NCBI GenBank assembly: GCA_041694835.1
Contig: JBGFRZ010000032.1
Span: 57 to 64,056, forward strand
Length of the DNA stretch: 64,000 nt
Direction of reading: 5' to 3'
Origin: Ignavibacteria bacterium
Lineage (GTDB): Bacteria; Elusimicrobiota; Endomicrobiia; PHAN01
Shown: positions 31,536 to 49,124 of the stretch, one piece after another
Layout: every line of letters starts with the position of its first letter
Position numbering within the stretch: the first letter of the stretch is position 1
Translations under genes and position numbers: made by a program
Notes under the pieces: generated by a model
Databases searched by the model: none
Told to the model about the DNA's origin: nothing
Seen by the model: the letters and a program-made list of their open reading frames with translations, nothing else

Positions 31536-34500
31536 TCATCTTGATACCGTCACAGTTCCGTTTATTACTTTGTCGTCGGATTCAATCTGATAGATATAAA
31601 TTCCCGAGGGCACTTTGTTTCCGAATTCGTCGTCGCCATCCCACCTTAAAGATGTTTCACGGTTTGGTCCCCTTTTATTCAGTTTTTTGACAAACCGCCC
31701 CATTTTGTCGAATATAAATCCGACGACTCTTTCTTCAATTCCCGGCGGGCCGTCAAAATTTATAATCAAAAAATCATTTTTATTGTCGCCGTTCGGGGTT
31801 ATTATTTTCGGATAAACGTCATCTTTTCCTACCGAGAATGTTGAGCGATTCGTTAGTTTTAGTTGAAATTTTCCCAGAACTGACGCTGCCACTGAAATCG
31901 TCTTGTTGAATCTGTCGACGGCACCACCGAATCTGATCCATCTCACTCCGTTGAACCAGTAAACGGCATACTCGCTTTCATAAGAACCCGGGGACATCAC
32001 CGCAGAACCCCTGTCAAAGTAAGTAAACGATATATTGAAAGTTTGTTCTTTTGGAACATTTTTTTCTTTATTTGATTTTATATCCCGAAGTGCTACAACA
32101 AAAGATTTTACCACGCGGCCGATTTTTTCCTCAGGCACTTCTGTAATCCTGAGCACTGAGTTCTCAGGCAAAATGGCCGATGTCTCAACAAACAAGTCTT
32201 TATTGTCGCTCATTACTATTATAACCGGCGCAGTCTTCGATGCCACTATTGCCGACGGCAGGCTTTCGTTTGAATATATATCCACAGCCTTTATCGTGTA
32301 ATAATAAACGTTTTTTTTTGTGTCTTGAGAAAATTCGTTCGACTTTAACGGAAGCATCGTTATTTTTTCGTATATCCCATCCATCGAAGTGCTCCTGTAA
32401 ACAAGATAACCGTCGATGTCGTAAATCGGGCTCAGGTCCTCGTTGTATTTAACTTCATCCCAAAATATTTGAAAAATCCCGCCCGAAAAACTCCCGCGAA
32501 CTCCGGTGGGAGCAAGTGGGGGCATTTTATCGACGACCTTATCGGTCATAACGTTGACAATATCAGTAGGGGCGGTTATTATTCCGTCGCCATTGAAGCC
32601 ATATAGACGGTAGTAGTATGTGGTGGAATGGCTCAAATTTCCATCGGTATAAGTTGAAGAAGAACCAGATATATTGTCGCTTACAACTGAAAAAAATAAG
32701 CCGTCAAGGGATCTCTCGAGTCTAAACTTGCTGGAGCCGCCCGTCGGAGATTGCCAGGAGAGCGTAATTGAATTTTTTGTTTTGGCTATACTCCCCAAAT
32801 TTCCGGGCGGATTGGCCAGGGTGTATTTTGAAACTACCGATGAACCGAATGAAACGCCGCTTGCATTCCCCGCTTTGATATATCTTGAATATTGTGTATT
32901 GGGTTCTAAACCGATTTCGTTCCAAGATATTGTTTCGTTTCCTTCAAGATTTTTCAACAGATGATTATCACCGGCTCTATAAATCTGATAATATGTCGCA
33001 GATGATGTTATCTCCCATGTCCAGTTGATCGCCACCGTGCTAACGGCTACCCCGCGAAAACCCAACGGCTCTGAAGGAATTGCCGGAAGTGTGATAGTTG
33101 AGATTGTTGTATCATATATCGTGGGTATACCCTCGCTATTGAACGCCTGAACCTTGTAGTAATATGTAGTCGCAGGCTCTAACCCTGCCGAGTCAGTAAA
33201 TGTTGTGCCCGTTTGGTTGTTTGCAAATGAGCTCAAGGTAAAGGTAGAGGTGAAGAAGTTATTCGTTGAGCGCAATACTCCCCATCTGGTTGATGCCGGA
33301 TTTCCGTTATTGCTCCATGTGATTTCTATTGAATGTGAAGTCCTCTTTAAAACATAACTATCAACGGGTGGCATCGCCATGGTATATCTTGAAGCGACGT
33401 TGGATGAAGATATTGATACGCTATTATATGCCGCCACATACCTGCTATAATTAGTATTAGCGGAAAAATTAGTTTCAAGCCAGATCGTCGTTCCGTGCGG
33501 CAACTCTGATAGCAATGCGTTTGTGGAACTAAATATCCTGAAACCATCTTCGTCAGGGGAGTTGTCTTTCCATGACCATAAAATCGAACCTGTCGACAAA
33601 ACCATGCCGCTAAACTCCGAAGGAGCGGATGGAACTCCGATGGGGCGGGTTGAAACGACGGAGGAAAAGGCACTTATAAAAATCTGCGGTGGAGCATCGT
33701 AAGAGTTCATCTTGTAAAAATATGTCGTTCCGTTGGTGACAGAGGTATCAACATAAGTATTGCTACGCGTAGTTCCTATAAGGGAATAGGTATTTCCGTC
33801 GGTTGAACGGTGAATTTCGTAGTAATCGAAGTCAAGATAACCGAGCTGCCCGAGCATATCATTCCAAAAAAGCTCAACCAACCCGCTTGAAGCCACTGAT
33901 TTGAGCCCGGTTGGAGGAGCGGGAACAATATCAAGGGCATAGCTGAACGCCTGTGTGAGCGACACAGTCGGCTCATCGATGGGAGAGATATTTCCGTCGG
34001 CGTCTTTTGATTTAATTGAAAAATAATATGTTGAAGAAGGGAAAAGACCGGAAATTCCGGTAATCTCTTCGGAGCCTGGAGATTGGGGGGACGGTGTATT
34101 ATTAAGCGAAGTGGCGACACTCCACCATGCAGTGGTATCTCCCAAAAGTGAGTTTATGGAAAACGTGGCGTATTTTATGATGTACTCTGAAACTTTCTTG
34201 TTCTGAGGAATATCTCCGGGGGCAATCCATGAGAGTTTGATCTCCCCTTCGCTCGCCCCTGTTACAGCAACAATGGATGTAACCGCTCTCGGCGGATAAA
34301 TATCCGCGATATAGTGTGAATTTTCATCCGACCATACGCTCTTCAACAAGCCCGAATCTATTGAAGCAACTGAAAAATAATATGTCGTTCTTATGGCAAG
34401 TTTTTTTATCAATATACTGTTAGTCGTGCCGATTCTTTTGGGCCTCGGATAGTTTCCCGAAAACGGTGTCGCCCATTGCGGACTCACGACATAACTTGAA

Positions 34501-36581
34501 GGGTTTATGCTGAAGGGGGCCGTCGCCATCCTGACAAGATAGTTGAGTGACTGCTGAGGTGTTTTATCATCGGAACCGTCTTGAAAAGATATGACCAGAT
34601 TTTCGTCGATATATTCTGCGATTGGCCCTGGCGGAGCTGATGGCGCAGCGTTGATTTTACCTGAATCTCTGTATGTGTTTTTGTAAATTCTTATCAAATT
34701 CGAAATGCCCGAAGACGGCGACCCCGAAACGACGAGATCCAGATCCCCATCGTTGTCTATGTCGCCGAAAACGACCGATGAGAGCTGGAGACCGAGATTC
34801 TGACCAAGAATCTCCTGGTCGGAATAAAACGTTCCGGAAGAATTCTTAAACAATATAAATCTCAAAAGACCGTTATTGTCCCTCCCTGTCACAACAATAT
34901 CCGGCCATCCGTCGGTGTTGTAATCGCCGAAGGCAAGCGAGCTATTGTCAACACCTGCAGCCAAACCCATTGGCTCCTGGTCGAGGCTAAAAACACCGTT
35001 TGTATTCTTAAAAAGAATAAGCCGTCTACCAGATGCTGTTCCATCAATTGTTCCGCTTACCGCTATATCCAGATCGCCGTCGAGGTCGTAGTCGCAAAAA
35101 GCCACAGAGCCGTTCTCAAGACCGATATTGACACCTAAGGGTTCTTGGTCGATTAAAAAAGTTCCGGAAGAATTCCTAAATAAAATGAATCTCCTGTTGC
35201 CTGTCGTATCTCTGCCTATGGCAGCAAGGTCAACCCATCCATCTTTGTTGTAGTCGCCGACGGACAGTGCCGAGTTGGAAAGCCCTGTCAAATCAAAACG
35301 CATCGTAAAACTTGAATTGTTGTTCTCATACACCCTTAAGTATCTGTTGTTGGGCAAACTACCAGGTCCGATGCCGCTTACGACAATGTCGTTGTCACCG
35401 TCATTGTCGAAATCCATCAAAACAACACACCCCATGACAAATCCGTCGGCGGAACCCATTGGTTCGCTGTCCAGAACAAACGGTGGAGTGCCGGAGGTGT
35501 TTCTGTAAACAAAAAATCTCCTGGTTGAGCCGTCAGGTGAACCGACCGCGATCTTGTCATCTTTACCGTCGGAATTTATGTCGCCGAAATAGAGGGAACT
35601 AGCCTGAAGGCCGACGGGAAATTCCTGCCACAACGAAAAATTTCCGACAGAATTTCTGTATATAACGTTTTTTCTGCTCACACCATCAAAGCCGCTGACA
35701 GCCAAATCTATGTAGCCGTCTGTGTCTATATCCGAAAAAGAAAAGCCGTTTTCGCTCGACAAAACATCACGAAGCCCCTCGAATGTTTGTGAGAGAAAAA
35801 AAGACGACGATACTGCAGTCGCCGTAGATGACCAGTTTGACTGGTTAGAGTTTTCGTCGAATGCAGATATCCATATATAGTGGGTGGCCGACGGGAGGAG
35901 CGAGGTGAGCATGAAGACATGGCTTGTGGCTGGTGAAAAATTCGATGATATAGAGATTTGATAAGTCGCTGTTTGCGGTGTGTCGGAAGGATTCGTTGAA
36001 TATCTTATTAAAAATCCGCCGCCGACTACCGAGCCGTTGTAAACATCATCGCCGGGAGCCGTCCATGTAAGTAAAATCTGGGCGGACAGCGTCGCCGAAA
36101 GATTCGTGATCTGCCCGGGAGGCAGTAAATCCCTCTGCGCCCAAGATGTAGCGGCATTAGAGATTGGAGAAAAGTTGGCAGGCGGAGATGATGTCCAAAT
36201 TCTGAAAAAGTATGTCGCCCCGCCGGTCAAACCGGTTATTGTGTGGCTTTGCGGCGCGCCGGAATTAACATTTGATGTGGATATTCTTATTTGCGCCGAA
36301 GCGGTTGACCAAACAACGTCGGAATCCTGCGAATGCTGTATGAAATATGTCGAACCAACAGGGAGGGAAGATGGACCGGGATACATCCATCCCAACACAA
36401 CCCCGCCTTCGGACTGCCCCCGGGTGGCGTTTAGATTTGTAACGGGGGACGGCTGGGCCGAAAGATAAAAAGGCCCCGCTATTAAAAAAAAGACAATTAG
36501 CGCTCCGTGACAAAAATAAAAAGCCCCCGCAAACCCGCGGTGGCTTGTAGATAAATGACTGACAAAATTAATTTTTATCAT
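31536..36581 (-). CDS. Large (1681-aa) secreted FG-GAP/fibronectin-III repeat protein with a T9SS type-B (CHU_C / gliding-motility-associated) C-terminal sorting domain
   Basis: At least six DxDxDGxxD FG-GAP calcium-binding repeats (e.g. FGDINSDGKDDKIAVG, GDIDNDGDLDLVVSG); Fn3-like segments; C-terminus ITPNGDNKNDFLIINF...LRWDGDDEFGNKVPSGIYIYQI typical of type-B sorting domains. Confidence 0.75.
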   Translation of the reverse strand: MIKINFVSHLSTSHRGFAGAFYFCHGALIVFFLIAGPFYLSAQPSPVTNLNATRGQSEGGVVLGWMYPGPSSLPVGSTYFIQHSQDSDVVWSTASAQIRISTSNVNSGAPQSHTITGLTGGATYFFRIWTSSPPANFSPISNAATSWAQRDLLPPGQITNLSATLSAQILLTWTAPGDDVYNGSVVGGGFLIRYSTNPSDTPQTATYQISISSNFSPATSHVFMLTSLLPSATHYIWISAFDENSNQSNWSSTATAVSSSFFLSQTFEGLRDVLSSENGFSFSDIDTDGYIDLAVSGFDGVSRKNVIYRNSVGNFSLWQEFPVGLQASSLYFGDINSDGKDDKIAVGSPDGSTRRFFVYRNTSGTPPFVLDSEPMGSADGFVMGCVVLMDFDNDGDNDIVVSGIGPGSLPNNRYLRVYENNNSSFTMRFDLTGLSNSALSVGDYNKDGWVDLAAIGRDTTGNRRFILFRNSSGTFLIDQEPLGVNIGLENGSVAFCDYDLDGDLDIAVSGTIDGTASGRRLILFKNTNGVFSLDQEPMGLAAGVDNSSLAFGDYNTDGWPDIVVTGRDNNGLLRFILFKNSSGTFYSDQEILGQNLGLQLSSVVFGDIDNDGDLDLVVSGSPSSGISNLIRIYKNTYRDSGKINAAPSAPPGPIAEYIDENLVISFQDGSDDKTPQQSLNYLVRMATAPFSINPSSYVVSPQWATPFSGNYPRPKRIGTTNSILIKKLAIRTTYYFSVASIDSGLLKSVWSDENSHYIADIYPPRAVTSIVAVTGASEGEIKLSWIAPGDIPQNKKVSEYIIKYATFSINSLLGDTTAWWSVATSLNNTPSPQSPGSEEITGISGLFPSSTYYFSIKSKDADGNISPIDEPTVSLTQAFSYALDIVPAPPTGLKSVASSGLVELFWNDMLGQLGYLDFDYYEIHRSTDGNTYSLIGTTRSNTYVDTSVTNGTTYFYKMNSYDAPPQIFISAFSSVVSTRPIGVPSAPSEFSGMVLSTGSILWSWKDNSPDEDGFRIFSSTNALLSELPHGTTIWLETNFSANTNYSRYVAAYNSVSISSSNVASRYTMAMPPVDSYVLKRTSHSIEITWSNNGNPASTRWGVLRSTNNFFTSTFTLSSFANNQTGTTFTDSAGLEPATTYYYKVQAFNSEGIPTIYDTTISTITLPAIPSEPLGFRGVAVSTVAINWTWEITSSATYYQIYRAGDNHLLKNLEGNETISWNEIGLEPNTQYSRYIKAGNASGVSFGSSVVSKYTLANPPGNLGSIAKTKNSITLSWQSPTGGSSKFRLERSLDGLFFSVVSDNISGSSSTYTDGNLSHSTTYYYRLYGFNGDGIITAPTDIVNVMTDKVVDKMPPLAPTGVRGSFSGGIFQIFWDEVKYNEDLSPIYDIDGYLVYRSTSMDGIYEKITMLPLKSNEFSQDTKKNVYYYTIKAVDIYSNESLPSAIVASKTAPVIIVMSDNKDLFVETSAILPENSVLRITEVPEEKIGRVVKSFVVALRDIKSNKEKNVPKEQTFNISFTYFDRGSAVMSPGSYESEYAVYWFNGVRWIRFGGAVDRFNKTISVAASVLGKFQLKLTNRSTFSVGKDDVYPKIITPNGDNKNDFLIINFDGPPGIEERVVGFIFDKMGRFVKKLNKRGPNRETSLRWDGDDEFGNKVPSGIYIYQIESDDKVINGTVTVSR

Positions 36582-36758
36582 TGTTTCGGTAGCCCAGCCG
36601 GCATCCGTTCAAACCCGAACCCCGTCGCCTTTCAACGACGGATTGTCCCATAACGCGGGATTTAGCCCTGTTGGCTTTGCGTCCCCCGGTTTCCCGGCAT
36701 CCCGACACAAAATCGGAACGTTCCCATATGACCAGCAGGGAAGGTTTGCCTTTGTCGC

Positions 36759-36946
36759 TATAATGAGATTATTGAAAAACCCATCTTTTTCACTTAAAGG
36801 GCAGTTTCTTAACGGTTAAAAGTTTCAATCAGACCGCAAAACTCCTCGCTTTGCTCGTCAGACATTGCGGTCTAAACGATTTCAACTTTTAACCTGAAAC
36901 TGCCAAATCGTTCAAAAGATTAAGGTTTTTCAACGAGCTCATAATA
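36759..36946. mobile_element. Roughly 190-bp imperfect-palindrome element, copy 2
   Basis: Differs from copy 1 at only a few positions; terminal repeats TATAATGAGATTATTGAAAAACC ... GGTTTTTCAACGAGCTCATAATA. Confidence 0.65.
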
Positions 36947-36996: not shown

Positions 36997-39672
36997 TTAG
37001 ACAACGCATATATTGGAATAAGGACAGTTCCTGCAGTAAAGCTCGTCATCGCTATCCCTTTCAAACGGAGTTTTGGGGTCAAATATCCCGGAAATCAACG
37101 CTTTTAGCGAAGGTAAAAATATGCCGTTCATGGCATCGGCCGCGTTATTCTTGAAAATGCTCACCTCTTCTATCTCCCTTATCGAATAAAACTCCGCATT
37201 TATCCTCTCCAAAGGAAGTCGTGGGTTTTCTCGCCAGAAAAGAAAGACATAAACGGGCAGTTGGAAAGATTTTATTTTTTTTCTCATGGTTTTTCTGTCG
37301 TTTATCGCGCCATCCAGGTTTTTTAGCGGAGTTTTAAACTCCCCGCTCTTATAATCAACTATGAAAAAATCGTCACATCTTCTATCGAGCCTGTCAGCCC
37401 GTCCCTTTAACCTGACAAAGGTTTCTCCTTCCAACTCAAGCCTTGAACGCAGTTTAACTTCAGTCGCGATAATCTCGCAATCTCTCCTGTTTTTTTCAAA
37501 ATCAAAAAAACTCAAAAGTTTGTTCTTGACAATATCTCTCAACAGATAGATTTCTCCGCGGATTTCGCCGAAATCGTTTTTTAGATGAAAATCCATTAGT
37601 TCCAGAAGACGATTTTTATCTTCATCCGAAAGATTTAGTTTTTTTCCGACAAAAGGTCTGAAAAATTCATCCAAAATTGAATGAAGGCATCTTCCTATGC
37701 GGCTTGCGTCCGGATCCCGTTGGACGTCCTCCCTTTCCTTGAAGTTGAGCAAGGATGAAAAATAAAACCTGGCGGGACAGTTCAGGTAAACGTCTATCGC
37801 AGTGGGCGAAAGTTCTATATCCGACAATAATCTCATTGTGTTTTCGGATTTCCCGAGCGACGCACTTCTTTTTTCGTCGGCGTCTATGCGGAAAAAAACC
37901 GGAGAAACTTCCGACTCTTCGGATTCGACCGATTTTGAGTTCATCTGTTTTTCCCAGATTATCTCTTCAATGTATCTGCTTCTGGTATCTTTGCTGTGTT
38001 CACTGTATATCAGATGAACTTCCCTGGCCGAATTTACGAGATTCATGAAATTTTTTCTGAACACTTTCTCCCTCTCCCTGTAAGTCGGAAGTCCAAGATG
38101 CATTCTTGTAGCCGGAGGCAGAATCGGATCGTGTTTCGAAATGTTCGGAACTATTCTTTCATTTACGTCCAAAACTATGACTTTATCAAAACTTAGGTTT
38201 CGAATCTCAAGCATCCCAAGTATCTGAAGCCCGCCCAGAGGCGTGCCCGAGAAGGGTATTGTTTCAGTCGATATGAAATATCTGAAAAGCTCGAAAAGAG
38301 ATGGCGGTTCCATGGCTTTATCAGAAAACATTGTTTTCTTCATTTTCTCAAAGAGCTCAAAAAATTTTTTAGTATATTGCGCGCCGAAGGGCTGGGTCTT
38401 AAGCAGAGATTCTGTTATAATAAATTTTAAGATATTTGCGAATTTTACAGCCAACTCGCGAAATGTGCGAATTTCCTCCGACGAAATCGTCAATTCCTTG
38501 TGGAGCCCACTTAAAAGAACGCTTTGACCCAAAATACTTTCTATTTCATCTAGCGAGCAAAAGGCCTTGTTCACGCGAGACGATATCATATCTTCCACTT
38601 CTTCCGTCCTGATGGGCAGAGCGGAAAGTATGTTTTTTACATATGGGTGAAAAATGACGGAAAGGTAGTCTCGCATGTAATATTCGTTGCCGACGCGGGA
38701 CTCTTCAAGTCTGATTATTGTCTCAAGAAACGTGTAAACGGGTGTCCTGACGAGAGGATAACCCATGGTGACGTTGTAGTCCACCTCCAATTTGCCCACA
38801 ACCTCGGATAAAAGAGGAATCAGAGCATCCGACTGCGGCAAAATAACGGCTGTCCGGTCGGGGTCGAAATCTTCCGATAAAATCTCTCCAACCTTTCTTA
38901 CTTGCGAATGGGTGTCAAAAGCCGAATATATAAACACCCCTTCCGTTTTCCATTTATTCCCGGAGTTTCTTACAACCGTTATTGTGTTCTTTAACGAACG
39001 GAGCTTGTTCAGAATTTTTTGCTCAAGCCTCAATGGTTCGAATATGCCGCAAAGATAAATTGATTTGTAATCTTTCAGGTGCTCTTCGGATATATTTTCC
39101 GAGACAACTTTAAAATTCAAAGCCGCCGTGGTCAAATTTCTATTCCTGAGCTCTTTGCGGAAAGCATCTCTTATTTCGCCAAGATTCGCAAGTATGTTGA
39201 GGAGTTTCGGGGGTATATTTTCGGAATGCAGAGACTTCAGGCTATCGTTCTCAACGTCACAGATATCTATTTCATCGATGACATTGAAGATTCTTAGTCC
39301 CCACATATAAAAACCGCTGAAGTTGCCGGAAAACGATTTTATCTTAAGCTTGTTTATGACCTCGAAAAGAAGCCACACCTTATCAAGCTCTTCTATAATC
39401 CCAACGCCGGGATTTATTTTTTGCGATATATAGTTTACAAATCCACTTATAGAAAAAACGGCGGGTGGCAGAAACGGCCCGTTCAGTTTTTCGCTTAAAT
39501 ACTTTATGAAATAATGCGAAGGTCTTTTATTCGGAAAGATCGCCACGATGCCGGACAAATCATTCCCCCCATCGTTCTTCATGATATGATCGGCAATTTT
39601 TTCTATGATGTTTTCGTTTTGCGACAATTTGATTATCATAAAATGTCGGTTCTTGAAACTTTCAAGCGGCAC
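36997..39672 (-). CDS. AddB/RexB-like PD-(D/E)XK nuclease with an inactivated N-terminal helicase-like domain and a C-terminal Fe-S (Cys4) RecB-family nuclease
   Basis: C-terminal nuclease motifs GRADRLD, IVDYKSG, QLPVY and Cys ligands CP...CRNCPYSNIC; no intact Walker A at the N-terminus (GIVAIFPNKRPSHYF). Confidence 0.65.
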   Translation of the reverse strand: MPLESFKNRHFMIIKLSQNENIIEKIADHIMKNDGGNDLSGIVAIFPNKRPSHYFIKYLSEKLNGPFLPPAVFSISGFVNYISQKINPGVGIIEELDKVWLLFEVINKLKIKSFSGNFSGFYMWGLRIFNVIDEIDICDVENDSLKSLHSENIPPKLLNILANLGEIRDAFRKELRNRNLTTAALNFKVVSENISEEHLKDYKSIYLCGIFEPLRLEQKILNKLRSLKNTITVVRNSGNKWKTEGVFIYSAFDTHSQVRKVGEILSEDFDPDRTAVILPQSDALIPLLSEVVGKLEVDYNVTMGYPLVRTPVYTFLETIIRLEESRVGNEYYMRDYLSVIFHPYVKNILSALPIRTEEVEDMISSRVNKAFCSLDEIESILGQSVLLSGLHKELTISSEEIRTFRELAVKFANILKFIITESLLKTQPFGAQYTKKFFELFEKMKKTMFSDKAMEPPSLFELFRYFISTETIPFSGTPLGGLQILGMLEIRNLSFDKVIVLDVNERIVPNISKHDPILPPATRMHLGLPTYREREKVFRKNFMNLVNSAREVHLIYSEHSKDTRSRYIEEIIWEKQMNSKSVESEESEVSPVFFRIDADEKRSASLGKSENTMRLLSDIELSPTAIDVYLNCPARFYFSSLLNFKEREDVQRDPDASRIGRCLHSILDEFFRPFVGKKLNLSDEDKNRLLELMDFHLKNDFGEIRGEIYLLRDIVKNKLLSFFDFEKNRRDCEIIATEVKLRSRLELEGETFVRLKGRADRLDRRCDDFFIVDYKSGEFKTPLKNLDGAINDRKTMRKKIKSFQLPVYVFLFWRENPRLPLERINAEFYSIREIEEVSIFKNNAADAMNGIFLPSLKALISGIFDPKTPFERDSDDELYCRNCPYSNICVV

Positions 39673-41515
39673 TCTCTGCGTCTATAGAAACACTAACCGA
39701 ATAATTCCTTGAGCTCCGAACAGCAGAAATAATTTTCGAAAAATCGCCGTTTCCCTTCAAAATTATTTTCCAGAGATACCGCTTCCTTAATTTCTTCCGA
39801 TAATCACTTGATGGACCGACGATTTCCGCCTCTAAGTTGTTTTCGTTTAATATCTTTTCCATGAGAGTGGACGTTTTTTCGGCGTATAACTTGGCCAACT
39901 TATCATTTTTGCTCCTGAAGGTCAGCGTTATCAGACGGGCGTAAGGAGGGTATTTGAGTTTTTTTCTTTGTTTCAACTCTTCGGAATAAAACTCCTCATA
40001 ATTTAATTTGAAGGGGTAGTAATCCGGGAAGTGGGTTTCGACATAGAGCTCGGGCTCTTCGGCTTTCTTTGATAAAAGTTCGCTATAATCCGCCATCTTC
40101 AAAAATATTTTTTCATTGGAAAAATACTCCGGATGCATGAAATCGAAATCCGCATTCAATAAAATGACAAGTCCTATATCAGACGACACCATATAATGCC
40201 TGGGAGGATGTGTGGCGATGATGAAATCGGCTGATAACGACTCTTTATTTTTATTGCTTTTGTATGAATTCCTGGCGTCGAGATCGTAACGGGTTATAGT
40301 CGCACACGGATAAAGCTGTCTTAAGGACTCCTCGATTTTTTGCGTTCCAAAAGAAAGAGCGGTAAGATTCCGAGAGCCGCAGATATTGCATAATGGGGCA
40401 TAGACGATCTGTCTGCCACAGTAGTTGCATCGGAGTATTTTTTCTTTCCCGGCGATGTAGAGCGTGAGGGGTATGTCGCAGTCTTCGCATTTCAAAATCC
40501 TTTTGCATGAGCCGCAGTAGTATCCCCCGGAAAAACCTTTCAGCGGATAGTGTATAAGCGTGGTAAGCTTTTTGATGTAATTTCTGTCGATACTTTCCTT
40601 TAAAATTGAGATAATGTCATAATTCCTGCTCTTATATTTTTTAACGATTTCCCAATGATTTTTTTTATACGCATCGGGAGGTTTTTCCGTCAACTTTTTC
40701 ACGCCGCCTTCTTTGATTTTGGAATAGATGTCGACTGAGAACGCGGATCCTCCGAAAATAACTCTTATCTTATATCGCTCCGATTTTTTGAGCGCCACGT
40801 TTCTTGTGTTGTAATAAGGGCGCCGTCCATCCTTGTGGGCGTAGTCGTACTCTCTGTCAACAATTATGGTCCCGAGGTTGTTGAGTGGCAAAAACACGCT
40901 TCTTCTTGTGCCTATCACAAAACTGCATTCGTTCAAGAGTAGTTTTTCGAATGTTTCCGATTGCATTTTTTTTGATAAATCCGAACTCCAGACAACGGGC
41001 TCGAATCTGGCGTAATAATTTTTCGCCCAAACAACATCCGAAAGCGTTGGTAGAACAAGAAGCACGCTTTTTTTTGCGCTGAGCCCATCTGATATTTCTT
41101 TTTTGTAAAAATCATATCTTTCATCGTTCCCGAGGAATGCGGCGAAAAGAGTACTTTTGTCTTTTCCATTATTTATCTCTGGATTTTTTGATGCGGTTTT
41201 TATGTGTTTAAAATCAATCGGATATATCAGATTCAACACCGCGCCAACGGAAACAAAGTAATGCTCGCTCAAGGCATTTGCGAATGCGAGGGCTTTTTCG
41301 TCAATAACCGGGGTTTCGTCCACTGATGAGATTACTTCCTTTAATTGATGCTTAAGATGAGGTTCTTTTTTGCCAACATCGACGACATATCCAAGGCGGG
41401 ACGTGCTTCCGAAAGGGACATTCACCCTTGAACCGACAGATAGATTTATGCTCACAGGGACAGCATAATCAAACTCTCCGTCGGGAGGCTTTGGAAATAC
41501 TACTTTTGCAAACAT
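39662..41515 (-). CDS. PriA-like protein with degenerate ATPase motifs (primosomal protein N' homolog lacking Walker A/B and the arginine finger)
   Basis: PriA-type N-terminal 3'-DNA-binding domain (FDYAVP...RVNVPFG), motif Ia LLVLPTL, PriA Cys-rich zinc module (CGSC...CEDC...CNYC...CNIC); Walker A position reads GNDER, DEEH reads DREY, the GRAGR region is absent. Confidence 0.65.
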   Translation of the reverse strand: MFAKVVFPKPPDGEFDYAVPVSINLSVGSRVNVPFGSTSRLGYVVDVGKKEPHLKHQLKEVISSVDETPVIDEKALAFANALSEHYFVSVGAVLNLIYPIDFKHIKTASKNPEINNGKDKSTLFAAFLGNDERYDFYKKEISDGLSAKKSVLLVLPTLSDVVWAKNYYARFEPVVWSSDLSKKMQSETFEKLLLNECSFVIGTRRSVFLPLNNLGTIIVDREYDYAHKDGRRPYYNTRNVALKKSERYKIRVIFGGSAFSVDIYSKIKEGGVKKLTEKPPDAYKKNHWEIVKKYKSRNYDIISILKESIDRNYIKKLTTLIHYPLKGFSGGYYCGSCKRILKCEDCDIPLTLYIAGKEKILRCNYCGRQIVYAPLCNICGSRNLTALSFGTQKIEESLRQLYPCATITRYDLDARNSYKSNKNKESLSADFIIATHPPRHYMVSSDIGLVILLNADFDFMHPEYFSNEKIFLKMADYSELLSKKAEEPELYVETHFPDYYPFKLNYEEFYSEELKQRKKLKYPPYARLITLTFRSKNDKLAKLYAEKTSTLMEKILNENNLEAEIVGPSSDYRKKLRKRYLWKIILKGNGDFSKIISAVRSSRNYSVSVSIDAESAA

Positions 41516-41520
41516 ATTTC

Positions 41521-41565
41521 GCTATTTGCTATTTGCTATTCGCTATTCGCTATCTATAGCGCGAC
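41521..41565. repeat. Short low-complexity element D (GCTATTTGCTATTTGCTATTCGCTATTCGCTATCTATAGCG)
   Basis: CTATTCGCTATTC unit shared with elements C, E and G; supplies the last codons and the TAG stop of the SpoIID-like gene. Confidence 0.5.
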
Positions 41566-42691
41566 GAACAACCGTTCCGGGATAATAAAATTTTAATATC
41601 TGGACGTAATCCCGCCCTTCATCGGCCATACCTTTGGCGCCGGCCTGACAAAGTCCCACCCCATGGCCCCAACCGGAACCGCGAAACTCAAAAGAGTCTT
41701 TATGTCTCACAACCGCCGTAAGCTTCGTGCTCCTCATTCGCCACGGGTCCAGCGCCAGGCGGAATTTTCCGGCATGAATCAATGTCTTGCCTGCGGTGTG
41801 GCTCACTCTTATGTGCTTTGCCCGCCCGGATACACTTCGCCCAACAATCTCAAGATTCTTTATTTTTCCGACTTTATATCCGGAAACGTACATCTTCTTT
41901 CTTATCAATTCTCCGTCGAAAACATGTGTCCAGTTAAAATGCTTATAATGAGTGCAAAATTTGCAAACCCTGGGAACAAAGTAATGCGGAATTTCGTTTG
42001 TCATATTCCAGACATTGGCTATTTCTTCGGTGTGTCCGCCACAGCTTGCATGGTAAACGGCGTTTACAACCTCGCCTTTTCTATCATAAAGAACCTCGCC
42101 TTTTGTTTCGAAGACCGCCCTATCCGTGGCAGGATTTTCGACTTCGAGGCCGCCGTAAACCTGGCAATGAACCGTAGAACATACATCGAAACCATCTGCT
42201 CTGTGGCGACCTGAATTCTTCCAGACAAAACTCCTTGCCGCCACAGCCTGTGCTTTCAAAGCCTCGGGTGGCCATGAGGGACTCATCTCCTTCGGAAGCA
42301 CCCCGCGGATGTAGTTGTCTATCCCGAGCTCGTTGATAACGTTCAACCCGTTTGAGGTTTTTAAAATCAAAATCGAATCCCTGTATCTTCTGCCGTTTAT
42401 TTTTACATGCTCATCGCCGACGGGGACGAGCCTAACGGGCAAATTATATCCCTTGCCATCGATCAAAAGAGAGTCTTTTCTTATGCGCGCCAGATAATCG
42501 TTTGAATCGTTGAAAGTTCTTTTTTTTCCGCTTTTTATCTCATAGACATAATAATTATTACCTGAAACATTGAAACCCGGAACATCCTTGATTATCCCAA
42601 CTTTGATTATGTCCCTCGAAGCAAAAACAATTTGATAAAGACAAAGCATGAAGCAGAGCGAAAATATCACTAAATGTAAAATTTTTTTCAC
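41543..42691 (-). CDS. SpoIID/LytB-domain protein (amidase-enhancer family), secreted; start proposed at GTG 42691
   Basis: GFDVCSTVHCQVYGG SpoIID motif. A GTG start gives a clean signal peptide (V)KKILHLVIFSLCFMLCLYQIVFA; the longer ATG-initiated ORF to 42775 reads through the conserved leader cassette. Confidence 0.65.
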   Translation of the reverse strand: MKKILHLVIFSLCFMLCLYQIVFASRDIIKVGIIKDVPGFNVSGNNYYVYEIKSGKKRTFNDSNDYLARIRKDSLLIDGKGYNLPVRLVPVGDEHVKINGRRYRDSILILKTSNGLNVINELGIDNYIRGVLPKEMSPSWPPEALKAQAVAARSFVWKNSGRHRADGFDVCSTVHCQVYGGLEVENPATDRAVFETKGEVLYDRKGEVVNAVYHASCGGHTEEIANVWNMTNEIPHYFVPRVCKFCTHYKHFNWTHVFDGELIRKKMYVSGYKVGKIKNLEIVGRSVSGRAKHIRVSHTAGKTLIHAGKFRLALDPWRMRSTKLTAVVRHKDSFEFRGSGWGHGVGLCQAGAKGMADEGRDYVQILKFYYPGTVVRRAIDSE

Positions 42692-42720
42692 CCCGTCAGA
42701 AGCTCCGATGGTTTGTTCAT
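42688..42720 (-). other. Conserved leader cassette copy Y: 10-codon uORF (MNKPSELLTG) whose TGA stop overlaps the proposed GTG start of the SpoIID-like gene (GTGA)
   Basis: AGGGTTGATGAACAAACCATCGGAGCTTCTGACGGGGTGA on the minus strand. Confidence 0.4.
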
Positions 42721-42771
42721 CAACCCTGAATTTTTGGGCTTTGCTCGTAAATTTTCTAAAACTACATGGGT

Positions 42772-42984
42772 TCATTTTTTAAAAAGATTGATAATTAAAG
42801 TTAGAATGATTGATAAAATTATCGAAGTAGTGAACGGGAAGAAAAATACGAAATTTTCTTTTTTGATGTATATATCCCCCGGAAGGCGCCCAATAAACGG
42901 AATTTTATGCCCCATGTAAAAAAATATGCCCAAGACAATCATAATTAAACCCGTTATTATAAAAATTTTTCCGAAATTGGACAT
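42772..42984 (-). CDS. DUF2905-family small membrane protein (start at the internal Met; longer ORF to 43119 is repeat-derived)
   Basis: MSNFGKIFIITGLIMIVLGIFFYMG...GRLPGDIYIKKENFVFFFPFTTSIILSIILTLI. Confidence 0.5.
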   Translation of the reverse strand: MSNFGKIFIITGLIMIVLGIFFYMGHKIPFIGRLPGDIYIKKENFVFFFPFTTSIILSIILTLIINLFKK

Positions 42985-43005
42985 AATTTTAGCGGCGAAG
43001 GCAGA

Positions 43006-43250
43006 AGTGCACAAGAGCGCAAGAGCACAAGTCAGAGGACAGAGTTCAGGGAACAGAGAACAGAGGTCAGAGGCTAGAGGCGAGGGACAAGAGGTTAGGG
43101 AATGGAAATTTTTATTCAATTTCTTGTCCCCTATCCTCTATTCTCTATACGCTATTCTCTCACCTCTGACCTCTCACCTCTCATCTCTCATCTCTATCCT
43201 CTATTCACTATTCGCTATTCGCTGTCCTACAGTCTCTAATCTCTGCTGCT
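43006..43250. repeat. Low-complexity purine/pyrimidine dyad element E
   Basis: GCACAAGAGCGCAAGAGCACAAGTCAGAGGACAGAG...GGTTAGGGAATGGAAATTTTTATTC...TCACCTCTGACCTCTCACCTCTCATCTC...CTATTCACTATTCGCTATTCGC; the central GGAAATGGAAATT motif is shared with element C. Confidence 0.7.
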
Positions 43251-43808
43251 TTTTTGTTCTACCCGTTTACCTCTCTCTCCCTTGTCGCTTTCCTGTCTGC
43301 TGAATATGCATCCGCAGTATTTCTGACTGTAGAGCCCAAGTTTTTTTATCTTCTCTTTTGCTTCGCGGTATTTCTTCCTCACATCGACATAAATAAATTC
43401 AACATTCCATTTTTGCGAAAGAGTCTCCGCTATTCCTCTTATTAAATCGTGCTTTTGATAAGGACTTGCAAGAAGTGTCGTCGAAAAGCAGTCGAATATT
43501 TTGTCGCCTCTAAAGCAACGTCTCGCCGTTTCTTCGAGTCGGTTTATATAACAATACTTGCATCTATCAGCCGAAGCTTTCGCCGCATCAAGCCACTTTT
43601 CCATGCTATGAGCCGGGATATTTATAGATGAGATTCCTTTAAGGGCGTTGAATTTTTCAAGGGCGTCAAAACGGAGATATGATTCCTGTTCGGGGTGTAT
43701 GTTCGGATTATACCATAAACCGTAGACATCAAAATCCATCTCTATTCGCTCCAGCATCGGAGCGGTGCAGATAGCACAACACTGATGAAGCAAAAGTTTC
43801 TTTCTCAC
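43236..43808 (-). CDS. queH: Epoxyqueuosine reductase QueH (DUF208)
   Basis: LLLHQCCAICT N-terminal Cys cluster, YVDVRK..GLY..KYCGC; GTG start; last 5 or so codons run into element E. Confidence 0.8.
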   Translation of the reverse strand: MRKKLLLHQCCAICTAPMLERIEMDFDVYGLWYNPNIHPEQESYLRFDALEKFNALKGISSINIPAHSMEKWLDAAKASADRCKYCYINRLEETARRCFRGDKIFDCFSTTLLASPYQKHDLIRGIAETLSQKWNVEFIYVDVRKKYREAKEKIKKLGLYSQKYCGCIFSRQESDKGERGKRVEQKSSRD

Positions 43809-43837
43809 CAGATCAGAAGTCCGCGCAATTTGTTCAT
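43805..43837 (-). other. Conserved leader cassette copy Z: 10-codon uORF (MNKLRGLLIW) whose TGA stop overlaps the queH GTG start (GTGA)
   Basis: AGGGTTGATGAACAAATTGCGCGGACTTCTGATCTGGTGA on the minus strand. Confidence 0.4.
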
Positions 43838-43863
43838 CAACCCTGAAGTTTTTGGCTTTACTC

Positions 43864-44889
43864 TTACTGGAAAAGTGAATTTTTCTTGTCAGGGACTGGA
43901 ATTTTTAGATGTCCGTAGGCTTTTTCGGTGGCGATGCGGCCGCGGGGTGTGCGGGCTATGAATCCCTCCTTTATCAGATACGGCTCATAGACATCGGACA
44001 CTGTGTCGACATCCTCGGAAACTGATATTGCCACAGATTCTACTCCGACGGGACCACCGTTAAATTTTCCCACTATGCTTAAAAGAATCTTCCTGTCCAT
44101 CTCGTCGAGACCGCCTTCATCCACCCTCATCTTTAAAAGAGATTCCCTCGCTACATCCATAGTAATTATGCCATCGGATTTAACATCGGCAAAATCTCTT
44201 ATCCTTTTAAGCAGTCGGTTCGCGATTCTCGGAGTACCCCTTGAACGAGCGGCTATTTCCGCTGATGCGGTGGATTCGATGCGGATGTCAAGTATCTTGC
44301 TAGAGCGGGCGAGTATTTGATTCAATTCCTCCGTTTGGTAATATTCAAGATGTTCGACGATCCCAAATCTTTCCCTTAGGGGCGTGCTCAATAATCCCGC
44401 TCGTGTCGTCGCCCCTATCAAAGTAAATCTGGGAACTGGCAGACGAAATGTCCTTGCGCTCGGGCCCTGACCAAGAATGATATCAAGCTGAAAATCCTCG
44501 AGAACGGGATAGAGAGCTTCTTCTACAAGATGATTCAATCTATGAATCTCGTCGATGAAAAGGACGTCTCCTTCCGACAAACTCGTCAGTATCGCCGCAA
44601 GGTCGCCGACACGAACCAATATGGGGCCGGATGTTGCCCTCAGATTCACCGATAACTCCTTTGAGACAATGTGAGCGAGTGTGGTTTTGCCAAGACCTGG
44701 TGGCGAATAAAAAAGACAGTGGTCAAGTGGTTCGCCCCTTTTTTTGGCTGCCTGTAAAAAAACCTTAAGGTTCTCTTTCATTTTTTCCTGGCCAACGAAC
44801 TCATCAAGCGTTTTTGGCCTTAGGGAGTTTTCGAACGGGGTTTCTTGCGCGAATTTTTCGGCGATTGTAATTTCTTCATTATTCTCCAT
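43864..44889 (-). CDS. ruvB: Holliday junction branch-migration helicase RuvB
   Basis: Walker A PPGLGKTT, Walker B DEIHRL, sensor motifs. Confidence 0.95.
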
Positions 44890-45524
44890 TACAACCTCTT
44901 AAGAGCGTCTTTGACGACTTCCTCTACTTTTTCTCCATAAGGCATTTCGTCCAATGATTCATCGACGGCGGTTTTGGCCTGGCTTTCGCGATATCCCAAA
45001 GCCACAAGCACGGCGACCGCCTCCGCCCTTGTATTTACATATCTGGATGAGCGTTTTTCCATGGGGCCTATTTTTAATTCGGCGATTTTATCTTTCAAAT
45101 TCGATATGAGTTTTTCCGCTGTTGGTTTTCTGAAACCAAACAAAGTAGAAAGTATTGGAACATCCTTGTCTATCACTGCCTTCCGGAAATCTCCGACGGA
45201 CTTCGTTATCTTATCAAGATACTCCAACGCTTTTTTTGCGCCTGTGCCAGGCATCGTTCTCAACAGCTCGAACGTGTCTTTTTCGATCTGGCTCTGAAAG
45301 CCGTAAAGCGTTGTCGCGCCGCCGTACATGGCGGTAGATTCGCTGATAAAGAACCTGACCTCAGCCGCCGCATCGTCGGGAAGCGACGCAGACGTGGAAG
45401 GGGTGACGAAAACTTCCCATCCGACACCCGAAACCTCGACGATGACGCTCCCAGAGTTTTTTTTCAATAATATACCTCTCAGAGATGCTATCACGAGAAC
45501 CTCACCGAATTGAAATAATGACAC
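44889..45524 (-). CDS. ruvA: Holliday junction DNA helicase RuvA
   Basis: 211 aa; OB-fold N-terminus and HhH motifs; in ruvA-ruvB order. Confidence 0.9.
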
Positions 45525-45982
45525 ACGGCCACCGCAAGAGCGTCAGCGGTATCGTCTGGTTTTGGGATATCCTTTAAGCCCAGAATGTTTTTCACCATAT
45601 GCTGCATCTGGTTCTTCTCGGACGAGCCGTATCCTGTCAACGTTATCTTGATTATCCTGGGGTTGTACTGAAAAATCTTCATTTTGTTTTTGGCCGCTAT
45701 GTATAGAATCACACCGCGTGCCTGCGCAATTGAAAACAATGTTTTAGATTTTTTTAAGAAGAAAATCTCTTCTATAGCAAGCGTTTCAGCCTTATGTTTC
45801 TTTATTATAAAATCCATCGAATCCGCTATTTCCAAAAACCTATTTTCCGATGACAGTTCGAGCGATGTTTCTATACAGCCGTATTCAATCGCTTCAATTT
45901 TCTCTGGACCAGAGCCGCCGCAAACACGAACCGCCGCCCATCCAGTCCTCGCAACACCCGGATCTACGCCGATAATTATCAT
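45491..45982 (-). CDS. ruvC: Crossover junction endodeoxyribonuclease RuvC
   Basis: MIIIGVDPG...TGWA N-terminus typical of RuvC. Confidence 0.9.
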
Positions 45983-46734
45983 AAATTTGAAGAACCTGAT
46001 TCTTTCAGGTTGGAAATATCGAAGTTGGCATAGATGTTTTTAACATCATCGTAATCTTCGAGGCTCTCCATTAATTTTAGCATTTTTTCGGCCTCTTCCC
46101 CGCTCAGTTTTATGAAAGTCGTGGGATGCAGCGACACCTCGGCGGTTTCTACCGCTATTTTTTTAACTTCAATAGCTGATTTTACATTGTTGAAATTTTC
46201 AGGTGAAGTTGTGATTTCGTAGATGTCGTCGTCTTCAGTCCTGACGTCGTCGGCGCCCGCTTCAAGCGCCACACTGATTATTTCATCTTCGGTAATTCTC
46301 GTTTTATCGACGGAGATATAACCCTTCAAATTAAAGAGCCACGCGACGCATCCATTTTCTCCGAGATTGCCGCCGTGCGTCGAAAAAATCTTTCTTATCT
46401 CCGCTGTAGTTCTGTTTTTGTTGTCAGTCGTTGCCTCGACCATAATCGCAACGCCACCCGGACCGTATCCCTCGTAAACAATCTCTTCGTAATTAACACC
46501 CGGCAGCTCACCTGTGCCCCTTTGAACCGCTTTTTTGATGTTGTCAAGGGGCATGTTCGCTTCTCTTGCGTCATCCATTGCTTTTCTAAGACGCGGATTG
46601 TTTTCCGGATTTCCACCACCAAGTCTGGCGGAGATTGTTATTTCGCGTATTATCCTTGTAAACAACTTCCCTCGTTTTGCATCGATGACGGCTTTTTTGT
46701 GTTTTATACCCGCCCACTTCGAATGTCCCGACAT
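45979..46734 (-). CDS. yebC: YebC/PmpR-family transcriptional regulator (start at internal MSGHSKWA)
   Basis: [15 protein letters not shown] signature; the 17-codon upstream extension is probably not translated. Confidence 0.85.
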
Positions 46735-46802
46735 CTTTATTCTCCTATGGTCCCGCTTTGCGGGAACATCCCCGAATAAATTCAACCCCGCCCTGCGGGT
46801 CT

Positions 46803-49124
46803 TTATTTCAATCTCTCGACAGCCATTTTGTTTGTAGGGTCTATCTGTTTTACCCTTTCCCAGACGCTCCTCGCCTCTTTCGACCTATTTTGCTTTTCAT
46901 ACATCAAAGCCAGATTTGAAAGAAGCGTGGCGTTGCCGGGCTGAGATTGAATAAGTTCTTTGTAAATTTTCTCTGCGTTGTAAAAATCCCCGGCGGTAAA
47001 ATAGAGGTTCGCGAGATAAAATCTGCCCTTGAAACTTCCCGGATATTTTTCCGCTATTTTTTCAGCTATGCCAATAGCCGATGACCAATCTTGTTTTTCT
47101 ATAAACCTGCCGAGCTGCTCCATAAGTTTATCGTATTCGGTCAGGAAAGAAACAGACGCTCCCTGTTGTCTGAGCAAGGTCTCAAGGTTTTTTCTCGCCA
47201 TTAAAAACTCTGGGTCAATCTCAATGGCCATCTTGTAGAAATCAATTGCACGCTTCGGTTGGTTGGTGCGGGTATAAAGATAACCCAGATTATTTATTAT
47301 GTCCTTGTTGTCTGGAAAAAAATTATGGGCTTGTTCAAAAAGGCTTATTGCCCTGTTGGAATTTTTCTCAATATCGTTCATATATATCGCACCGAGCGCC
47401 ATATATGTATCAAAAGAGAGCGGATTTATTCCGAGTGCCATCGAGTAGTTTTTTTCCGCCTCACTGCGATCGCCCATCTGATTATAAACCGTTGCCATGT
47501 TAAAAAATATCTCGTCGTATCCGGTATTTGCTTTTAACGCCTCCTTGTAAGCCCATATCGCTTTTTCCTTCATGCCAAGCCTCGCATAGGTGTTTCCAAG
47601 TTCGTAGTTGTTGTTGACTTCAAATCGCTGATATTTATGAGCGCGCTCAAGATACTCCATCGAACTTCTTACCTCTCCTCTTTTCGACAGCTTGAAACCC
47701 GAAAAGTAATTTATTTCACCCATGAAATTTTTGTAATACCTTATTATAAAAATCACGCCTGCAAGAATAAGCACAAAAACGATGGATTTCGAGAGCATGT
47801 TCTTAATCTGTATTTCCCTGATTCTGGGAGACGCTATAGACATCAGGACGCCGACAACCCACCAGTAGAGAAATGCCGGTACGGCAAAGTGAATAGAGAC
47901 ATTTAAAAGATTATCGATAAGCATGCCAAATATCCCGGCGGATAGAGCAAGAGAGAGCGTCTTTTGAAAACCGGACGCGGATTTCCATATTTTAAATCCT
48001 GATACGAAAAGAGTGCATATGAGCCAGATATAAACGCCGAATCCAATTATTCCCGTCTGAGACCATATCTCCAGAATTTCGTTGTGGGCGTTGTTTGCAT
48101 GTGTCCTAAGGGTTCTATATATGTCAAAAAAAAGATATCTCCCCTGATAAAAAGGAAAAAAAAGCTCGAATAGTCCCCATCCCCTGCCTATCAGCGGCAT
48201 CTCAACAATCATATTCCATGCGCACGACCATATCAACTGCCTCTGATGCGCTGGAGCGTAGACTTTTGTGGCGTAATCTTTTGATTCTATCAATCGTTCA
48301 AAAATCGCCGGGGTGTATTTCTCGACGCTTTTCGGGTGAGGCCAGAAAAAAACAAGCAATGCCACAAATGCTCCGAGAACAATCAATCTCTTTTTGCTTC
48401 TATATATCAGCTCTTTCTGTAAAAGTGCAAAAAACAAAACCAACCCGCCAAACGCCCCGAGCCAGGAAGATCTGGTAAGAGTAACAACAAGCGATGTCAT
48501 ATAGGTAAAAATATAGATGAAATAAAAAATGACATCCGATGATTTTTTGGCATTGATATAATAAGCGAAAAGAATCGGCAAAAGTATTACAAGGTAAGAA
48601 GATAAAAAGTTGGGATTCCCGAAAGTTGAGACGGAACGGCCGCCGAAAGGATTGAGCAATCTTGGCCAAACAAACTCTATGCCGAGAAACTGCAAAATGC
48701 CGTAAAAAGCGGCGATGAACCCGACGAAAAACAAAACACCAAAAGTCTTTTTTTTGAACTCCTCGTCCAATAAATTTATAGGAATGTGATAAACGAGGAT
48801 TGCGTTGACAAGGAAAAACAGCCAACGTTTCAGGCCTTCTGAGTAACTCGAAAATCTAAGAAAAACGTCGGAGTAGTTTTCAAAAAAATTGAACAGCCAC
48901 GAAAAAGTCGCCACAGAAAAAAAGACAAAAAGCGGGAGATCTATATTTGAAGTCTTTAATGTTATTTTTTTCGCAATCAACCCTTTAAGCAAAAACCAAA
49001 TCCAGATAAAAAGGGTTAGAGCGTTCAAAAATACTATCTGAAAGTAGTACGGATTCCTTGTAAGGTCTGTGAAAAAAACTATCGGCGGAATCGTCAGTAA
49101 TATGAAGATTAAAATTTTGTACAT
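46803..49124 (-). CDS. O-antigen ligase-like (Wzy_C) polytopic membrane protein fused to C-terminal TPR repeats
   Basis: Twelve or more TM helices, [12 protein letters not shown] Wzy_C-like motif, several TPR repeats at the C-terminus. Confidence 0.6.

Follow-up and report, generated by a model that had tools for sequence, protein, structure and literature searches.

PriA of Deinococcus radiodurans is a pseudohelicase in which the Walker A lysine is replaced by arginine. Although it lacks both ATPase and helicase activity, it is still able to bind forks, single-stranded DNA and DnaB (PMC4504706). The PriAs of Deinococcus-Thermus in general carry arginine for the Walker lysine together with a poor Walker B motif, and the corresponding K230R mutation of Escherichia coli PriA abolishes its ATPase (PMC4504706). 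In AddB, the helicase-like domain is inactivated and serves instead in the recognition of Chi (PMC3321194), the Walker A motif being kept by only 'a large subset' of AddBs (PMC3064778). The AddB of Bacteroides fragilis is short, has four cysteines and a DYK motif, and works only together with AddA (PMC2887965). Here we describe a locus at which a gene for a motor-less PriA directly precedes addB, within a 64-kilobase (kb) stretch of contig JBGFRZ010000032.1. The window, as we call this whole stretch of 64,000 nucleotides (nt), comes from an uncultured lineage.

The original prediction for this locus, made from the letters alone, had described an ATPase-dead PriA homologue whose gene overlaps by 11 nt that of an AddB-like iron–sulphur (Fe-S) nuclease with a degenerate helicase domain, with no AddA nearby and with ruvABC next to it. 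It was suggested that the pair, without motor activity, could be a novel module for replication restart, recombination or defence. We consider it likely that the locus is made up of two known kinds of DNA-maintenance protein that have been joined by a lineage-specific rearrangement, with AddA encoded elsewhere.

The protein of 617 amino acids (aa) is a PriA with a 3'-end DNA-binding domain (3'BD), both helicase lobes, an eight-cysteine zinc module and a C-terminal domain. The Pfam families PriA_3primeBD, Zn_ribbon_PriA and PriA_C were all matched (Table 1), and against TIGR00595 (priA) the protein scores 239.7 bits, marginally above the curated equivalog cutoff of 230.35. Its top match amongst the PDB sequences, as found by phmmer, is Klebsiella PriA (4nl4, expectation value (E) 6e-45). 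F15-D16-Y17 aligns with the FDY of the Klebsiella and E. coli PriAs. F15 and Y17 are invariant in five dead PriAs, and Y17 is invariant in all 48 PriAs aligned; across the same number of PriAs seven of the eight zinc cysteines are invariant and C343 is nearly so. The PP motif of the C-terminal domain is also conserved. The AlphaFold2 (AF2) model, with a predicted local distance difference test score (pLDDT) of 87.6 and a predicted template modelling score (pTM) of 0.88, has two RecA-like lobes. The best matches to this model in Foldseek are E. coli PriA from the complex of PriA, PriB and a fork (8fak_H, query-normalised template modelling score (TMq) 0.86) and the winged-helix deletion 6dcr.

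While the fold, the 3'BD, the two lobes, the eight cysteines and the C-terminal domain are shared with the E. coli and Klebsiella PriAs (4nl4, 6dcr, 8fak), the window PriA is without the ATP site and without the winged-helix domain. The states of the motifs were read against 4nl4 and in alignments with 10 and 47 other PriAs. At the Walker A position GNDER is found instead of GSGKT, with R133 taking the position of the Walker lysine, and at Walker B DREY is found instead of DEEH. Motif III reads GGSAFS instead of GSATPS, and motif VI DYSELLSK instead of QVxGRAGR. In the comparison with 4nl4, AAFLGNDERYDFY lies opposite AGITGSGKTEVY, IVDREYD opposite VIDEEHD, IFGGSAF opposite ILGSATP and SELLSKKAEE opposite SGRAGRAGKQ. 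A search of the whole protein for GK[ST], DExH and GRxGR found none of them. The winged-helix domain, about 110 aa in length (4nl4 130-237), has no counterpart in the window PriA, which in this respect resembles the engineered deletion 6dcr. The domain is also absent from some PriAs with intact motifs (P0106, P0107), so that it does not strictly define a PriA.

The same motif losses are carried by two independently assembled relatives, P0002 (51% identity) and P0003 (45%). The sequence that replaces Walker B, VDREYDYAHKDG, is conserved in the former and nearly so in the latter. That the losses derive from errors of sequencing or assembly is scarcely credible, as the same substitutions are seen in independent assemblies from other samples (L004, L005) and none of the other reading frames at the Walker A site restores a P-loop. 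No hidden motif was found that would point to a mis-assignment of the motif positions. Within the trio the identities are 59/48% for the former ATPase lobe as against 61/52% for the 3'BD. With the lobe conserved to the same degree as the 3'BD and no loss of the zinc cysteines, it would appear that the protein is under purifying selection and is not decaying. Taken with the shared losses and the conserved replacement sequence, this argues that the window PriA is a real protein, maintained by selection, that cannot be an ATPase; judging from its sequence, it is most likely unable either to bind or to hydrolyse ATP. The PriA homologue of the original prediction, with its 3'BD, helicase fold and Cys-rich zinc module, is therefore confirmed, and the motif losses are confirmed residue by residue; the missing winged-helix domain had gone unmentioned.

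Motor-dead PriAs form a sizeable group that is already annotated, though barely discussed as far as our literature search shows. We analysed the best-scoring 150 PriA representatives (P0365-P0512 among these) from a profile search of 1.84 billion cluster representatives (50% identity), and found that 51 of them lack motifs I, II and VI together. The median length of these dead PriAs is 621 aa versus 763 aa for the intact proteins, and in 31 of the 51 there is an arginine at the position of the Walker lysine, as with R133 in the window protein. Those with names are listed as 'primosomal protein N'' of Candidatus Omnitrophota and Elusimicrobiota metagenome-assembled genomes (MAGs), and one of the dead priA genes is directly upstream of fmt, encoding methionyl-tRNA formyltransferase. 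In a further 27 of the 150, one or two out of Walker A, DExH and motif VI are missing. The dead PriAs have no winged-helix domain and often show R-W/Y at the K-T position of Walker A.

A scan of metagenomes with the dead-PriA alignment, using patterns degenerate enough to match canonical PriAs as well, gave 80 priA loci with flanks, all at 30% identity or less. Four more dead PriAs were amongst them, but there was no addB adjacent to any of the 80 and no new member of the window clade. Dead PriAs are present at L088, L092, L094 and L111. The clade of the window PriA forms a very long branch, with 26-29% identity even to other dead PriAs. In a neighbour-joining tree of 155 PriAs the midpoint root falls beside this long branch, and the tree is uninformative as to a single origin of the dead PriAs.

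The closest described parallel is the D. radiodurans protein. Like it, the window PriA has arginine at the Walker lysine and a degenerate Walker B, and keeps the DNA-binding and zinc modules. The decay goes much further in the window PriA, a protein of ~617 aa in which none of motifs I, II, III and VI can be recognised and which has no winged-helix domain, and its gene is coupled to addB. The lineage is also unrelated and uncultured, the nearest by similarity of AddA and AddB being Candidatus Desantisbacteria.

The long branch and the score only just above the TIGR00595 cutoff, in a genome of which the analysis is confined to the 64-kb window, could suggest that the window PriA is a paralogue, redundant, decaying or neofunctionalised, with restart carried out by a canonical ATP-dependent PriA encoded elsewhere. 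We regard this as improbable. Relatives at 45-51% identity, assembled independently, have an unbroken frame as well. Conservation extends to the 3'BD, the zinc cysteines and the C-terminal domain, and in the lobes it is no lower than in the 3'BD. The dead PriAs are, in addition, a large family whose named members in Omnitrophota and Elusimicrobiota MAGs are annotated plainly as 'primosomal protein N'', one of them encoded directly upstream of fmt, and D. radiodurans manages with a pseudohelicase PriA (PMC4504706).

The gene downstream of priA encodes an ordinary AddB, whose RecB-type nuclease is intact and which has four cysteines for Fe-S binding. The only Pfam match is C-terminal, to PDDEXK_1 over residues 620-889 (in the numbering of an 891-aa protein). 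The nuclease motifs are GRADRLD, containing D749, DYK at 762-764 (within DYKSG) and QLPVY at 793-797. Across 29 aligned members of the family D749, D762-Y763-K764, Q793 and Y797 are invariant. The cysteines expected to hold the 4Fe-4S cluster, a feature of many though not all AddBs, are C621 and those of C869-x2-C872-x5-C878, and the four are present in most of the 29. This part of the original prediction stands. In an Omnitrophota subgroup (P0138, P0139, P0144, P0150) all four cysteines have been lost with the nuclease motifs kept; in these proteins there is an asparagine for the first cysteine and the C-terminus ends before CxxCx5C.

The matches of this protein in NCBIfam, to addB_alphas and TIGR03623, are weak and below threshold, and phmmer found no match amongst the PDB sequences. 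The relationship to AddB came from the structure search. With the AF2 model (pLDDT 86) the top five matches in Foldseek are chains of Bacillus subtilis AddB, including 4cej_B, 4cei_B, 4ceh_B and 3u4q_B (E ~1e-27, TMq 0.62-0.66). The best of these is 4cej_B (E 3e-27, TMq 0.65), and the AddB chains are followed by AdnA and RecC. The structure predictions therefore bear out the folds that had been proposed for both proteins. A search for homologues gave 221 proteins of ~880-970 aa from Omnitrophota, Thermodesulfovibrionales, Spirochaetia and Bacteroidota. The Bacteroides proteins amongst them resemble the characterised B. fragilis AddB in length, cysteine pattern and DYK motif (PMC2887965).

With the AddB of B. 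subtilis (3u4q/4cej) and the AddAB of B. fragilis (PMC2887965) the window AddB has in common an inactivated N-terminus like that of superfamily 1 (SF1) helicases and a four-cysteine Fe-S RecB nuclease. The B. subtilis protein is longer by about 280 aa, and the two are only ~14% identical in the structural alignment. Like the Bacteroides proteins found, the window AddB belongs to a branch of ~880-960 aa that is without Walker A. There is neither a Walker A nor any other helicase motif in the window AddB, where PNKRP occupies the Walker A position. The degenerate helicase domain of the original prediction is thus real but not peculiar to this protein, as PNKRP or GGKRP is found at the position of the B. 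subtilis Walker A in 29 of 29 members, from Omnitrophota to Bacteroides. A recent loss of Walker A in the window AddB was considered and rejected, since the whole family is without it.

RecB-type and Cas4-like nucleases occur in defence systems, and the AddB nuclease domain does give a weak match to Cas4 in PADLOC (E 2e-5). This match is to the generic PD-(D/E)XK/Fe-S fold that is common to AddB, and the window PriA has no match in PADLOC-DB. Moreover, the family to which this AddB belongs is that of the chromosomal AddABs of many phyla, the context is one of housekeeping genes (ruvABC, yebC, queH, spoIID, his/trp/aro) and the base composition is uniform. It is therefore highly unlikely that the two genes serve in defence, against phage or otherwise, as had been entertained at first.

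In the 64-kb window there is no open reading frame (ORF) resembling AddA or UvrD and no second one resembling PriA. Scanning the GTDB representative genomes with AddB gave 80 related loci. In about 55 of these addA is directly upstream of addB, often with a short overlap, and this order is found in the nearest genomes, Candidatus Desantisbacteria CG1_02_38_46 (AddB 45% identical) and CG1_02_49_89 (40%). Outside the clade the nearest AddB is P0122 (42% identity), and its gene is directly downstream of that for a 1005-aa AddA of the UvrD type; the order in L001 is the same. The window differs from these usual AddAB loci in that addB has no adjoining addA and follows priA instead. In none of the 80 loci is priA near addB. 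Around eight of the 80 have no adjoining addA although their upstream sequence extends to 3 kb or more. These unlinked loci resemble the window, but none has priA as the upstream neighbour. Those without addA in 3 kb or more upstream are L019, L021, L035, L040, L070, L075, L079 and L085, and unlinked addB is thus not rare. In Helicobacter pylori, too, addA and addB are unlinked.

A search with the L001 AddA gave three AddAs at 40-44% identity (P0248, P0249, P0251), all of which keep GSGKT, DEFQD and the C-terminal nuclease motifs. P0248 is from sample ERR14790953, which is also the source of the priA–addB contig L005, and P0249 is from ERR14788558, also the source of the priA–addB contig L004. 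In both cases the upstream neighbour of the orphan addA is a radical-SAM gene fused to HypC and the downstream neighbour is a TMEM260-like/TPR gene, and there is no addB. The G+C content (GC) of the addA and priA–addB contigs agrees within each sample, at 0.494 versus 0.478 in ERR14790953 and 0.398 versus 0.375 in ERR14788558, and is different in the two samples. The three-way identities are congruent, at 51/45/48% for PriA, 49/44/44% for AddB and 50/48/48% for AddA. The third AddA, P0251, is found only at NCBI, as are the window's own proteins, and it fits the lineage of the window. The simplest reading is that these genomes have a complete AddAB with unlinked subunits, and we infer the same for the genome of the window. 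The statement that there is no AddA nearby thus holds for the window, but an unlinked and intact AddA is present in the samples of both nearest relatives. A novel module without a motor is not supported, given that addA adjoins addB in most of the related loci and that a dead PriA has already been published.

The distinctive feature of the locus is the tight junction of priA and addB, which is conserved in four related lineages. As well as in the window, priA directly precedes addB in L004, L005 and L174. The paired proteins of the four lineages are only 38-51% identical. In L004 and L005 the genes overlap by 4 nt (ATGA), and an overlap of the same length is implied by the gene coordinates in L174, where a 50-aa C-terminal fragment of PriA ends 4 nt inside addB. 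In L174 (152..2573) addB is split into ORFs of 200 aa and 596 aa, for which a frameshift or an assembly error is possible.

The origin of the junction is suggested by the neighbouring genes. In L170 and L171 (both labelled Elusimicrobia CG1_02_37_114) and in L173, which have the nearest of the other dead PriAs, a TMEM260-like/TPR gene comes after the dead priA and overlaps its 3' end. In L168 and L169 a clear orthologue of this gene comes straight after the orphan addA. The identities are 39-44%, and the L169 protein matches that of L170 over the full length (E 7e-176). As the TMEM260-like gene follows the dead priA elsewhere and the orphan addA here, a single exchange of downstream neighbours would give the observed pattern. 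On these comparisons of gene order, a single rearrangement, in which priA swapped downstream neighbours with addA, probably created the junction. The ancestral arrangement would have been priA–TMEM260-like and addA–addB, and the derived one priA–addB and addA–TMEM260-like. A possible route is a single inversion whose breakpoints lay immediately behind each of priA and addA. Since then at least four related lineages would have retained priA–addB as a tightly coupled pair.

The TMEM260-like/TPR gene itself switches its upstream partner, from the dead priA in the MAGs labelled Elusimicrobia to the orphan addA in the clade of the window. The regions concerned are L168 250..5851, L169 2790..10889 and L170 7348..12177, together with L173 and L172. 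Genes like those of hydrogenase maturation, hypA and radical-SAM, are near addA in L169, and in L172 hypA follows the dead priA. In L056 (5959..14112), from an Omnitrophota MAG, four tandem TMEM260-like paralogues are directly downstream of addA-addB.

Several points weigh against a rearrangement of this kind as the whole explanation. The presence of AddA in the same genome and the lack of a second, canonical priA are taken from co-occurrence in samples and congruent divergence. Amongst the contigs compared no single sister genome was seen to have both ancestral junctions, and the lineages from which the swap is deduced are of uncertain taxonomy. Selection for stoichiometric production of the two proteins could underlie the ATGA overlap of three relatives, and this would fit a physical partnership of PriA and AddB better than a neutral rearrangement. 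The very long PriA branch could also indicate a change of function.

In such a partnership the two proteins would form a dedicated complex, with or without AddA, and hence a new composite restart module. PriA would recognise the fork, D-loop or 3' end, while AddB would bind DNA ends and provide the nuclease, coupling the processing of breaks or reversed forks directly to the reloading of the replisome. A junction that has remained tight in four lineages of such low identity, with 4-nt overlaps in three of them, is in keeping with this, as are the unusual divergence of PriA in the clade and its gene's having taken the place that addA usually holds upstream of addB in the wider family. Resection, recombination and restart are, moreover, functionally consecutive. 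We nevertheless think a complex unlikely. The pairing is absent from all 80 of the other addB loci and all 80 of the other priA loci with flanks, and in the same samples there is still an AddA, intact and with a divergence that matches. The AddB shows no architecture specific to the clade, those of the AddA-linked relatives L001 and L008 having the same length (~880 aa), and a single swap of neighbours accounts for the junction. We also doubt the particular case in which, within this small uncultured clade, AddB or AddAB has gained a stoichiometric and translationally coupled partner in the motor-less PriA. If it were true, the complex would hand ends processed by AddAB, or reversed forks, directly to replisome reloading. 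Such a physical joining of resection to restart has not been described in any bacterium.

Table 1. Features of the priA–addB locus and its surroundings. Positions are those of the window; residue numbers refer to the encoded proteins.
Feature	Position	Strand	Details
priA	39662..41515	minus	617 aa, ATG start; ORF confirmed
3' DNA-binding domain, aa 1-100	41216..41515	minus	PF17764, E 3e-22, full-length match; aligns to 4nl4 20-129
Walker A remnant, aa 127-135	41111..41137	minus	FLGNDERYD where GVTGSGKTE is expected
Walker B/motif II remnant, aa 218-224	40844..40864	minus	IVDREYD where IIDEEHE is expected
Cys-rich zinc region	40379..40516	minus	C334, C337, C343, C346, C363, C366, C376, C379; PF18319
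PriA C-terminal domain, aa 524-613	39677..39946	minus	PF18074, E 8e-10
Spacer between priA and addB	39640..39661	minus	22 nt; priA stop 39662-39664, likely addB ATG 39637-39639
addB	36997..39639	minus	880 aa from ATG; inactivated SF1-helicase-like N-terminal domain and RecB-type Fe-S nuclease
Nuclease/Fe-S domain, aa ~610-880	37000..37812	minus	PF12705 (PDDEXK_1), E 6e-30
yebC-ruvC-ruvA-ruvB-queH-DUF2905-spoIID	41543..46785	minus	co-directional array upstream; Pfam assignments, gene spacing
Cyclic di-GMP-I (c-di-GMP-I) riboswitch aptamer	36585..36760	minus	Rfam RF01051, 39.5 bits (gathering score 35)
FG-GAP/fn3/CHU_C surface protein	31536..36581		1681 aa
ORF of 1471 aa	25492..29907	minus	no Pfam match
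First Wzy_C-TPR paralogue	46803..49124	minus	773 aa
Second Wzy_C-TPR paralogue	49130..51538	minus	802 aa

The addB frame, likewise confirmed, at its full extent covers 36997..39672 on the minus strand and would give 891 aa from a GTG start. The 11-nt overlap with priA that was described originally arises only with this alternative GTG, at 39670-39672. The ATG at 39639 is favoured by the N-terminus of the closest relative, the AddB of L005 (MIIQIG... vs MIIKLS...), and the database gene call for the window AddB (P0121, 880 aa) agrees with it. The two genes are probably separated by a 22-nt gap, to judge from these starts, and do not overlap, though they are indeed tightly linked.

The upstream array ends 27 nt before priA. 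The two genes close the same co-directional run, and the array from yebC to spoIID may be co-transcribed with priA. The genes are not immediately next to ruvABC, as had been stated, since ruvB is ~2.3 kb upstream of priA with three genes between (queH, DUF2905, spoIID), but they do belong to the same array. Scans for promoters and terminators gave nothing above shuffled expectation, and the limits of the operon are not set by them. The remainder of the window is made up of housekeeping genes, including glmS, ftsH, aconitase, his/trp/aro and cell-envelope genes.

Other features of the window were noted in passing. The c-di-GMP-I aptamer sits in the 415-nt gap after addB. Directly downstream of it is the gene for the large surface protein, whose CHU_C domain is a type IX secretion signal. 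The 1471-aa ORF, extremely rich in E, K and L, is apparently a coiled coil. It has a hydrophobic segment at the C-terminal end and a tail that is TPR-like, and it lies where the window has its lowest GC (0.40) and its strongest AT skew (-0.32 to -0.37). Directly upstream of yebC-ruvCAB are the two tandem paralogues, with O-antigen-ligase-like (Wzy_C) membrane domains and C-terminal TPR repeats.

On the reading that we favour, two known proteins brought together by rearrangement, the window PriA would retain the parts used in recognising abandoned forks and D-loops, namely the 3'-end-binding domain and the scaffold of the helicase lobes, and those used in reloading the replisome, the Cys-rich zinc module and the C-terminal domain. 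By analogy with the D. radiodurans PriA and the E. coli K230R protein, it would most likely act as a static platform for fork recognition and helicase loading, presumably as the only PriA of these genomes. AddB would be the subunit of AddAB that scans for Chi, binds DNA ends and cuts the 5' strand, with the AddA motor most likely encoded at a separate locus of the order HypC/radical-SAM, addA, TMEM260-like. Through the pairing of the genes, a subunit for the resection of breaks would be co-expressed with the restart factor that is needed once recombination is over. In the established pathway resection and recombination lead on to PriA-dependent restart. Since junction resolution belongs to the same series of steps, co-transcription of the two genes, possibly including ruvABC, would be physiologically reasonable.

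The locus would not, then, represent a new repair or defence system, both proteins being members of well-characterised families and AddA being most likely encoded elsewhere. The conserved coupling of priA and addB does offer a lead on whether resection and restart are physically coordinated. PriA pseudohelicases are apparently far more widespread than the published exception of Deinococcus-Thermus, and the Desantisbacteria-like clade of the window is an additional lineage with a motor-dead PriA. Their spread supports the view that the essential role of PriA is in fork recognition and primosome assembly, and not in unwinding.

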